From Bacilli bacterium (GTDB lineage Bacteria > Bacillota_I > Bacilli_A > RFN20 > CAG-826), in contig JAFVUY010000119.1 of assembly GCA_017502465.1 (NCBI GenBank), positions 31,583-95,582 on the forward strand: a DNA stretch of 64,000 nt. The letters are read 5' to 3'. Below the pieces are notes generated by a model that was not told the origin of the DNA, searched no databases, and saw only the letters and a program-made list of their open reading frames with translations. Shown piece by piece: positions 49,046 to 49,122 of the stretch. Numbering within the stretch: position 1 is the stretch's first letter; each line of letters begins with the position of its first letter. Position numbers and translations under genes: made by a program.

Positions 49046-49122
49046 CGCTCTCTCCACTGAGCTACCTGCGTGGTTAGCGCAGAGTTGGACTCGAACCAAC
49101 GACCTCTCGATTTACAGTCGAT
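49046..49122 (-). ncRNA. tRNA-like RNA with a loop-closed acceptor stem (circularly permuted order; Y-RNA-like architecture)
   Basis: Minus strand 5'-AUCGA-CUGUAAA-UCGAG-AGGUC-GUUGG-UUCGAGU-CCAAC-UCUGCGC-U-aacc-ACGCAGG-UA-GCUC-AGUGGAGA-GAGC-G-3'. That is an anticodon-type hairpin (GUA), a T-arm and an acceptor 3' strand, then a 4-nt loop, then an acceptor 5' strand (pairs 6 of 7) and a canonical D-arm. The flanks (..uucauaauuuuaucg / cgaaauuaagaa..) pair into a terminal stem. Promoter and leader motif lie upstream (49143-49200). Confidence 0.45.

Follow-up and report, generated by a model that had tools for sequence, protein, structure and literature searches.

CAGCAA-Framed RNAs with a Permuted tRNA-Like Module, a Proposed Y RNA Variant of Tailed Phages Linked to Ro60-Shaped DUF2828 Proteins

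The minus strand of a 64,000 nt stretch of DNA (hereafter the window; positions 31,583 to 95,582 of contig JAFVUY010000119.1, assembly GCA_017502465.1, listed as a Bacilli bacterium) encodes a small RNA in which the parts of a tRNA lie in rotated order. Comparative sequence analysis indicates that this RNA (locus 1, nt 49157–49020) is a genuine and conserved small phage RNA carrying a tRNA look-alike. Together with two siblings in the same window (locus 2, nt 58964–58845; locus 3, nt 51296–51174) it is probably a phage Y-like non-coding RNA of a new subclass, marked by a frame (a short closing stem followed by the motif CAGCAA) that is proposed to be read by a DUF2828 protein. CAGCAA-framed RNAs appear to be a widespread and apparently undescribed variant of Y RNA, and no description of the frame was found in full-text literature searches.

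Read directly in the sequence, 5' to 3' on the minus strand, locus 1 begins with AAGGCAG (nt 49157–49151), the 5' strand of the closing stem, followed by AUA and, 3 nt after the stem, by CAGCAA (nt 49147–49142), which the comparison of frames points to as a putative protein-recognition site. After UUUUUUGAUUCAUAAUUUU comes a hairpin resembling an anticodon arm, AUCGA-CUGUAAA-UCGAG (nt 49122–49106; four Watson-Crick pairs plus A.G), which corresponds to the 'V' arm of the YrlA literature. There follow a variable loop AGGUC (nt 49105–49101), a T-arm GUUGG-UUCGAGU-CCAAC (nt 49100–49084), the acceptor 3' strand UCUGCGC (nt 49083–49077), a loop UAACC (nt 49076–49072) and the acceptor 5' strand ACGCAGG (nt 49071–49065), with 6 of 7 positions paired and no CCA within the acceptor-like hairpin (nt 49083–49065). 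The final block of the module (nt 49064–49046) consists of a U8-A9-like UA, the D-arm GCUC-AGUGGAGA-GAGC (nt 49062–49047) and a G, and CUAAAACGAAAUUAAGAAA then leads to the 3' strand of the closing stem, CUGUCUU (nt 49026–49020), after which there is another G. The variable loop, T-arm and D-arm were also recovered by covariance models. Most likely, locus 1 takes the whole shape of a class-I tRNA, with a circular permutation at position 26/27 and a loop closing the acceptor stem. Each arm thus lies where an earlier, sequence-only reading of this DNA had placed it; the acceptor loop described there is present, but measures 5 nt (UAACC) rather than 4 nt (aacc). The flanks also pair, as that reading held, yet of its long terminal stem only the 7 bp closing stem (nt 49157–49151 with 49026–49020), which is present in the minimum free energy (MFE) fold, is secure. 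A further A/U-rich helix lengthening the stem was seen only in a constrained fold and lacks comparative support.

Ahead of the RNA is a sigma-70-type promoter, TTGACA-17-TATAAT with TG (nt 49200–49172, minus strand), the sole 12/12 consensus match within 45.7–60.5 kb. It also precedes an amber-suppressor tRNA with the anticodon CUA (nt 48936–49010, minus strand; ARAGORN and Rfam), which starts 9 nt downstream of the locus 1 frame and agrees with the neighbourhood first described; the two RNAs are probably co-transcribed. The coupling of a promoter to an ACAGCAA leader, previously remarked for loci 1 and 2, was likewise borne out, the promoter of locus 2 being a 10/12 match (nt 59026–58998, minus strand). 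Across the window, TATAAT-N8-30-ACAGCAA occurs four times against 0.19 expected; locus 2, with a longer spacing, and locus 3, with no promoter of its own, are not among the four.

A normal tRNA cannot be drawn at locus 1, as the sequence-only reading had maintained. ARAGORN, which called 25 tRNAs in the window, made no call here, and neither a D-arm nor an acceptor 5' strand lies upstream. The covariance match to a conventional tRNA that would have spoken against a permuted layout was only partial, the Rfam tRNA model reaching 21.4 bits (gathering score 29) with the D-arm deleted. With both programs failing, a conventional tRNA on either strand was ruled out. Junctions between tandem tRNAs are a known source of false positives in YrlA searches, but the acceptor strands at locus 1 are complementary to each other, the upstream sequence lacks a D-arm and acceptor 5' strand, and the downstream sequence lacks an anticodon arm and T-arm. 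Transfer-messenger RNA (tmRNA), including its two-piece form, was also rejected, as ARAGORN found no tmRNA and the Rfam tmRNA model gave only a 12-bit fragment elsewhere in the window. At gathering thresholds Rfam returned nothing at locus 1, and ROOL, drum and tRNAs elsewhere in the window. When thresholds were made permissive, YrlA (RF02553) was the top non-tRNA match at loci 1 and 2. At locus 1 it aligned over model positions 24–84, the tRNA-like module (29.5 bits), and at locus 2 over the whole model (28.7 bits).

The second example with a similar layout that had been proposed was confirmed as locus 2, and locus 3 was added as a third. These three permuted units belong to a set of eight in the window that have a common frame: a 7–9 bp closing stem (5' AAGRC-NN... 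/ ...NN-GYCUU-G 3') and then, after 2–3 nt, CAGCAA. Locus 3 (nt 51174–51296, minus strand; reading and covariance model) has the frame UAGACAC/GUGUCUA with AUACAGCAA around a complete permuted class-II-like tRNA, in the order hairpin, T-arm, 7 bp acceptor hairpin (loop AAUC), D-arm and anticodon arm (AUUGA-CUGAAAA-UCAAU), and most of these helices are present in its MFE fold. Locus 2 (nt 58845–58964, minus strand; reading, YrlA model and covariance model) is framed by AAGACAGCA/UGCUGUCUU and contains CAGCAA, a T-arm, a 7 bp acceptor hairpin (loop UUUG) and a D-arm; its module is closed by a 4 bp ACAG/CUGU helix and has no anticodon hairpin. A custom covariance model was built from the T-arm, acceptor hairpin and D-arm, with the three loci as seeds. 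It found exactly these three units in the window (locus 3, 62.3 bits; locus 1, 57.5 bits; locus 2, 48.7 bits, all of them seeds) and about 53 further matches of at least 44 bits in related phage loci, every one on the sense strand. Junctions between tRNAs scored no more than 38 bits in the window and at most about 40 bits across the loci, and in the single junction alignment shown the acceptor strands were mismatched. This separation of modules from junctions means that the layout of locus 1 is more than chance.

The remaining five frames, all on the minus strand, are not permuted, and four of them lack a tRNA body. One without tRNA-like cargo (nt 45975–46076) lies upstream of tRNA-Lys and is the closest to the Ro-like gene discussed below. 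A minimal frame, AAGGCUCAU/AUGAGCCUU (nt 48094–48160), holds a hairpin capped by the anticodon-like loop CUUUUAA, and two more are found upstream of tRNA-Ile (nt 51795–51863) and tRNA-Phe (nt 53242–53327). The fifth (nt 53361–53475; ARAGORN and reading) surrounds a tRNA of normal order with an 8 nt anticodon loop, labelled 'tRNA-??? (aaag)' by ARAGORN and possibly a quadruplet or frameshift-type tRNA.

One link to Y RNAs is a sequence match outside this group. Window nt 49040–49121 are about 85% identical over 82 nt to unannotated DNA of the Caulobacter phages CcrColossus and CcrPW. In CcrColossus this stretch belongs to a row of tandem tRNA-like RNAs that immediately precedes the TROVE gene gp139, each RNA being framed by GAGGGUGGCGUAG ... 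UGUUCCCCCUC, and CcrColossus is among the phages for which Y RNA-like RNAs and Ro60 homologs were reported (Chen et al. 2014, as cited in PMC12135203). A pattern scan of viral contigs gave two further examples, one (L127) with a GGGAGUGGUGUAG frame 650 nt from a gene for a Pfam TROVE+vWA_Ro60 protein, the other (L125) with the textbook GGUCCGAAUGC motif. A third contig, L128 (IMGVR_UViG_3300039366_000038, nt 4000–4200), carries a close homologue of locus 1 with a CAGCAA frame in a tRNA array. Its downstream synteny (metallophosphatase, terminase) resembles that of Bacillus phage vB_BanS-Thrax4, in which a DUF2828 gene precedes the metallophosphatase. Alignment of these four with locus 1 revealed one homologous tRNA-like module in two kinds of frame. 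All five keep the hairpin with a 7 nt CU-NNN-AA/UA loop and a 5 nt variable loop (AGGUC in three of the five), and three of the five have CUAAAA after the D-arm. Wherever the gene is in view, the type of frame tracks the type of Ro-fold gene. By sequence alignment, therefore, the tRNA-like module of the window is homologous to that of canonical Y RNAs encoded beside TROVE genes.

A TROVE/vWA protein had been suggested as a partner of locus 1. The window does encode a Ro60-shaped protein (518 aa, nt 44152–45708, minus strand; Pfam DUF2828+DUF7788, PHROG 850 'RNA-binding protein'), the proposed partner, but it is not a member of Pfam TROVE. PF05731 gave no match even at E-values up to 10, DUF2828 and DUF7788 being the only families found, and a sequence search of the PDB also gave no match, so that only the comparison of folds was informative. 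The AlphaFold2 model (21 homologues) is helical at residues 30–307 and continues as an alpha/beta domain. Foldseek searches of the PDB returned Ro60/TROVE structures as all of the top eight matches, over about 530 columns (full length) with E-values from 4e-9 to 1e-4. They include Ro60 of Thermus phage phiLo (best, E = 4e-9), Rsr of D. radiodurans and the Xenopus and human Ro60 proteins. [quoted passage not shown] The protein as modelled has the Ro60/TROVE architecture, a HEAT-repeat ring and a vWA domain with MIDAS; it is Ro60-shaped yet of another sequence family than the TROVE proteins. It has more than 8000 close relatives, DUF2828 homologues occur in thousands of metagenomic sequences, and tBLASTn found homologues in 711 cultured phage records, annotated as 'Ro-like RNA binding protein', 'RNA-binding protein' or 'DUF2828'. 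One phage protein of this general kind, the Ro60-like gp130 of Bas63, is encoded next to the phage tRNA genes and counters the Ppl defence (PhageMaP preprint, PMC11482910); the same preprint speculates that some annotated tRNAs are Y RNAs. In a Listeria phage, three hyper-abundant unannotated transcripts, suggested by the authors to be possible Y RNAs, lie no more than 2 kb upstream of the Ro-like gene CKA15_055, the product of which was found in virions (PMC12282133). Exact mapping of the CKA15 transcripts (26,236–26,727) onto the three frames of its sibling, Listeria phage cka14 (26,276–26,012) gave partial overlap, and was set aside as the genome numbering may differ.

The frame was surveyed in 1.45 Mb of related sequence, made up of 80 loci fetched from 184 confirmed IMG/VR loci (phages of about 120–200 kb) and 31 more from contigs of rumen or gut metagenome-assembled genomes. 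On the strand of the Ro-like gene there are 164 instances of the 5' motif A[AG]G[AG]C-N3-8-CAGCAA, and on the opposite strand five. A perfect 7 bp partner lies within 260 nt in 146 of the 164, compared with about 19 when the downstream sequence was shuffled. The first base of CAGCAA is at position 11 in 129 of 148 non-redundant frames; pairs 1–5 of the closing stem are almost constant (A-U, A-U, G-C, R-Y, C-G), while pairs 6 and 7 covary, with all four Watson-Crick types represented. Where a single non-Watson-Crick position was allowed, G.U exceeded A.C by 23:2, which argues for pairing in sense-strand RNA rather than DNA. Of 46 loci with complete flanks, 45 have frames, on average 3.4 in sense and 0.04 in antisense orientation, and 154 of 156 frames share the strand of the Ro-like gene and lie in the 10 kb ahead of it. 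The linkage also emerges from the opposite direction. A search of IMG/VR with the RNA motif alone (AAGRCNCATACAGCAAW) gave 127 instances, 35 of which have a DUF2828 gene inside the short locus fetched; all 35 genes are on the same strand, 23 of them starting 0.1–1.3 kb downstream of the motif, and no TROVE gene was matched among these loci. In view of its constancy, CAGCAA is likely to be a protein-binding site, and we regard it as the candidate.

In each of the seven cultured lineages examined, the frame adjoins a DUF2828 gene on the strand of that gene. Bacillus phage vB_BanS-Thrax4 has six frames, one with a permuted module, placed within the tRNA array that precedes the gene or directly behind that array. 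The Listeria phages LP-064 and cka14 show a strong promoter, three tandem frames, a terminator-like hairpin and then the DUF2828 gene. Three frames lie by the gene in Enterococcus phage TJE1 and two in Staphylococcus phage Alsa_3, the latter with CAGCCA or CAGCUA (CAGCYA). The E. coli Felixounavirus Alf5 carries four (one permuted) in a tRNA array after the gene, and mycobacteriophage Jobypre three (one permuted) directly after it, with no annotated tRNA among them. The sequence of the closing stem varies by lineage (AAGRC.., UGGAC.., AGACC.., UAGGAA.., AAGAA..), while CAGCAA and its spacing are kept. In LP-064, genes for an RtcB-like ligase and a putative RNA ligase are found 1.3–4 kb downstream of the DUF2828 gene (L114, nt 7855–9066 and 10626–11509), an arrangement reminiscent of the Salmonella operon rsr-yrlBA-rtcBA; in the window, the only counterpart is an open reading frame (ORF; nt 22234–23736) with a weak RNA-ligase match.

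The cargo inside the frames is varied. Among 152 non-redundant frames, 80 have no T-loop (typically 60–85 nt), 45 contain a permuted tRNA-like module, 21 show other arrangements with a T-loop and six hold ordinary tRNAs. Under a strict definition, a hairpin like an anticodon stem-loop is present in 18 of 65 minimal frames (120 nt or less), against about three of 65 after shuffling, and CUUUUAA, with UUU at the anticodon position, is the commonest loop; examples are window nt 48160–48094 and loci L003, L007, L026, L033 and L034. The permuted modules break at three kinds of point. Some, like locus 1, have the anticodon arm ahead of the T-arm; others, like locus 3, have it downstream of the D-arm, with a hairpin resembling a variable arm upstream; and others again, like locus 2, have a short closing helix and no anticodon hairpin. 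In 15 of 45 relatives the acceptor loop has N-CCA directly after the 7 nt acceptor 3' strand (chance about 2%), which points to an origin from tandem CCA-encoding tRNA genes; the loops of the window (UAACC, AAUC, UUUG) are 4–5 nt long and have no CCA. By analogy with a mycobacterial YrlA that RNase P cuts, some permuted modules may be opened by this enzyme.

Permuted modules keep the T-arm, 7 bp acceptor and D-arm through extensive compensatory change, and are thus under selection. An alignment of 25 modules has 95% of these pairs formed, a figure that is biased because the modules came from a scanner that requires pairing, and changes on both sides at 15 of 16 pairs. An unbiased check relied on a pattern that says nothing about the acceptor, GGTTCGAGTCCAAC-N17-23-TAGCTCAGTGG. 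Nine viral stretches matched it, four of them ordinary tRNA junctions and five framed modules, the acceptors of which are fully complementary but differ from one another.

The YrlA-type architecture suggested by the sequence-only reading agrees with the layout found here. Both kinds of RNA end in a terminal stem and have the hairpin, 5 nt variable loop, T-arm, loop-closed acceptor and D-arm in the same order, and both come as several copies per locus and share their strand with a gene for a Ro60-fold protein, which in the window lies near locus 1. They differ in that YrlA (RF02553), a family of bacterial and phage tRNA mimics bound by Ro60/Rsr, has GNCGAA(N)G/CGAA where the window has CAGCAA, 3 nt after a 7 bp stem; that the YrlA partner is Pfam TROVE+vWA_Ro60 whereas the proposed partner here is DUF2828+DUF7788; that the window copies are scattered over a tRNA array of more than 10 kb; and that the window-type frame also holds whole tRNAs, hairpins like anticodon stem-loops and permutations with other break points. 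The survey of Chen et al. 2014 covered only genomes annotated with TROVE proteins and defined YrlA by the GNCGAA(N)G motif together with the tRNA-like domain (PMC4201824). Thermus phage phiLo offers a viral parallel. Its Y-like RNAs Yrl1 and Yrl2 are encoded upstream of the phage Ro60 gene and have a stem-bulge-stem layout (PMC12135203), and phiRo60 is the best structural match to the 518 aa protein; the Yrl RNAs were identified through a CGAA motif, unlike the CAGCAA seen here. As that paper names tRNA only twice and YrlA never (PMC12135203), a tRNA-like module is apparently not described there.

Two other systems with rearranged tRNA parts invite comparison. Permuted tRNA genes are known in Cyanidioschyzon merolae and some archaea; as in the window, their 3' half (T-arm and acceptor 3' strand) precedes the 5' half, and relatives of the window RNAs often encode CCA at the junction, but the window units have a 4–5 nt acceptor junction, an optional anticodon arm and a conserved non-tRNA frame, with no bulge-helix-bulge motif evident on reading. 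In two-piece tmRNA genes the tRNA-like domain is permuted and the acceptor junction opens into two base-paired pieces with a CCA end. Unlike these, the window units have no mRNA-like reading frame or tag peptide. Burroughs and Aravind are said to have described in 2016 (NAR 44:8525) modules of Rot/TROVE and Band-7 proteins with cognate Y RNAs and 'a novel tRNA-like molecule', and some overlap with the CAGCAA-framed RNAs is possible. The window itself encodes a 511 aa Band_7/flotillin protein (nt 15955–17490, minus strand) and an 813 aa protein with a Pfam MVP_shoulder (major vault protein) domain (nt 30780–33221, minus strand). A vault-like system joining these two ORFs to the Ro-like gene was considered and dropped, as the MVP-like protein does not co-occur with DUF2828 and was found in only three huge uncultured phage records.

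In the reading preferred here, that of a Y-like RNA, the short terminal stem and CAGCAA would be the constant frame from which the tRNA mimic projects. The strong promoter at nt 49200–49172 would give one transcript of locus 1 and the suppressor tRNA, from which RNase P, by cutting at the 5' end of that tRNA, would release the Y-like RNA, a short tail being left at its 3' end. Next, the frame would be bound by the product of the DUF2828 gene, which lies downstream on the same strand, in roughly the way that Ro60 attaches to the 5' strand of the helix conserved in Y RNAs, and the tRNA-shaped module may recruit or occupy tRNA-recognising factors, in the service of RNA quality control or repair, or of counter-defence.

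Several results weigh against this reading. The scores of loci 1 and 2 are far below the RF02553 gathering score of 69 bits, and the presumed Ro-binding motif, GNCGAA(N0-1)G, is absent from locus 1, the 5' region of which reads AAGGCAGAUACAGCAAUUUU; CAGCAA stands in its place in all eight window frames. Since the CcrColossus Y RNAs are also under the gathering score (42.3, 30.5 and 29.9 bits), the low scores are not disqualifying, but together with the missing motif they make the window RNAs Y-like variants and not plain members of YrlA, which narrows the identity first proposed. On its strand, the Ro-like gene follows locus 1 at a distance of 3.3 kb, but 5.5 kb separate it from locus 3 and 13 kb from locus 2, more than the 4 kb criterion applied to YrlA allows. 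Folded singly, the sequences of loci 1 and 2 did not stand out (z = -1.0 and -1.4, respectively), and the fold drawn for locus 1 is 9 kcal/mol above the MFE. The MFE folds of loci 1 and 2 differ from the cloverleaf-like fold. Such folding was dropped as support, and comparative evidence was relied on instead. Constrained MFE folds of 133 frames showed no consistent asymmetry, so that a general architecture of a stem, a 5' bulge with CAGCAA and a coaxial second helix is at most possible. The confidence of the AlphaFold2 model is moderate (predicted local distance difference test score 69.6; template modelling scores about 0.4–0.5), and no DUF2828 or TROVE gene was found within the 11 kb locus of L128. 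Lastly, ordinary tRNAs too are found inside the frame, which often has a promoter on one side and a tRNA on the other, and so could be a processing or leader element.

This last point underlies one of the rival explanations, in which the stem and CAGCAA form a cis-acting leader or processing cassette that labels tRNA operon precursors to be handled by a nuclease or chaperone, perhaps with recruitment of the Ro-like protein in cis, and the permuted inserts are tolerated relics of tandem tRNA duplications. Five of the eight window frames end 7–38 nt before a tRNA, five of the eight follow a promoter, and six frames of the family enclose ordinary tRNAs. We nevertheless think such a cassette unlikely, because relics would not be expected to keep their arms through compensatory change, the three frames of the Listeria phages form a promoter-to-terminator unit of their own with no tRNA, and those of Jobypre, among which no tRNA is annotated, follow the Ro-like gene. 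Framed cargos could instead be standalone decoys that soak up host tRNA-targeting nucleases or tRNA-modifying enzymes, with the frame merely stabilising them and the Ro-like protein dispensable. The cargo is always tRNA-derived, the excess of anticodon-like hairpins in minimal frames (18/65 versus about 3/65) would fit, CUGUAAA, CUGUUAA and similar loops are like the anticodon loops of known tRNA targets of anticodon nucleases, and one framed homologue (L128) has no DUF2828 gene nearby. What decoys alone leave unexplained is a fixed-distance CAGCAA beside DUF2828 genes in phages of Firmicutes, Actinobacteria and Proteobacteria, and as a full account they are improbable. A role as decoy or as cis-acting leader is possible and partly compatible with the Y-like reading.

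The description 'circularly permuted tRNA gene', also offered by the sequence-only reading, suits the anatomy and the probable origin of locus 1 but is poorly supported if a decoding tRNA is meant. For that, RNase P and either 3' processing or CCA addition would have to open the acceptor loop, and the product, in two pieces or religated, would be charged with an amino acid and read UAC/UAU (locus 1, GUA) or UUC/UUU (locus 3, GAA). Loci 1 and 3 do hold every tRNA element, including the 7 nt anticodon-type loop, the GG of the D-loop and the UUC of the T-loop; N-CCA follows the 7 nt acceptor strand in 15 of 45 relatives as a true 3' end would; and the weak RNA-ligase-like ORF could be counted in favour. 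YrlA RNAs mimic tRNA, and that of M. smegmatis is cut by RNase P and gains CCA in vivo (PMC4201824). Against this, the 4–5 nt loops of the window, with no CCA, offer no processable junction, and the acceptor of locus 1 is only 6/7 paired. The anticodon arm is missing from locus 2 and many relatives, several relatives have A for U at position 33 (CAGUAAA, UAGUAAA), the anticodons duplicate those of the conventional tRNA-Tyr(GTA) and two tRNA-Phe(GAA) of the array, and the same frame carries cargo with no tRNA body. No bulge-helix-bulge splice motif was evident on reading the frame, and bacteria are not known to possess the archaeal/eukaryal splicing endonuclease. The lack of CCA, the short loops, the optional anticodon arm, the lost U33 and the duplicate anticodons thus make a decoding permuted tRNA very unlikely. 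Least plausible is a DNA-level element, such as a miniature inverted repeat or a recombination site flanking tRNA cassettes, which the 7–9 bp terminal inverted repeats around variable cargo might suggest. The strict strand asymmetry (164 versus 5), the tolerance of G.U but not A.C (23:2), the position of the units after promoters and on the tRNA strand only, and the absence of target-site duplications or an associated recombinase all speak against it, and we give it hardly any credence.

Several other features were noted in the tRNA array of the window, all on the minus strand. At nt 50460–50600 is a tRNA-like RNA of normal order with an acceptor (UGGGAGA/UCUCCCA, then CCA), D-arm and T-arm, in which the place of the anticodon arm is taken by an insert of about 60 nt with a frame-like GCCAU-UUCAGCAA...UGGC and an anticodon-like hairpin, a nesting inverse to that of locus 1. 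A tRNA with an insertion of about 58 nt (nt 50750–50880; Rfam, 55.2 bits) was missed by ARAGORN. A near-identical promoter cassette, TTGATTTTT..AAAAAATATGTTATAATAT, recurs at about ten sites (nt 45772–60176), each heading a short tRNA, frame or ORF unit. The array also holds a ROOL RNA (nt 56681–57355, 305 bits), a drum RNA (nt 51543–51652, 78.7 bits) and a partial DUF3800-XI motif (nt 51676–51707, 33.6 bits, under the gathering score). Three tRNA genes, identified by eye and uncalled by ARAGORN, seem to be split by long introns (about nt 48081–47180, 47125–46200 and 49975–49395) that carry ORFs of homing-endonuclease type: an HNH-like one, a GIY-YIG-like one and a third. In-frame TAG codons, such as those near nt 47820, 46921 and 49672, occur in these ORFs, which fits the amber-suppressor tRNA(CUA) and a possible recoding of TAG.

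Y RNAs and Ro60 are conserved from bacteria to humans, and the purpose of the tRNA-like part remains puzzling. We tentatively suggest, as a proposal less secure than the Y-like reading of the window RNAs, that Ro-type ribonucleoproteins (RNPs) have a second, undescribed class, marked by the CAGCAA frame and common in tailed phages, in which a DUF2828 'Ro paralogue' would read a short stem-plus-CAGCAA adaptor able to present nearly any tRNA-derived cargo, be it whole tRNAs, ones permuted at various positions or bare anticodon stem-loops, as a platform for the surveillance or repair of tRNAs or for disarming tRNA-targeting defences. If CAGCAA-framed RNAs do partner DUF2828 proteins, Ro-type RNPs would be far commoner in phages than thought, and would occur in model and therapeutic phages such as Felix O1-like, P100-like and K-like phages and cluster L mycobacteriophages. 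Two protein families of the same fold would then read two RNA motifs on a homologous tRNA mimic, a natural swap experiment (CAGCAA versus GGUCCGAA) on the recognition of Y RNA by Ro. The tRNA regions of phages contain many short 'hypothetical' ORFs and gaps without annotation that could then also be given a function. The variety of the cargo and its place inside phage tRNA arrays tie the system to the contest between phage and host defence over tRNAs, and a role of the Ro ring as a tRNA-tethering platform, if true, would match the reported anti-Ppl activity of Bas63 gp130.

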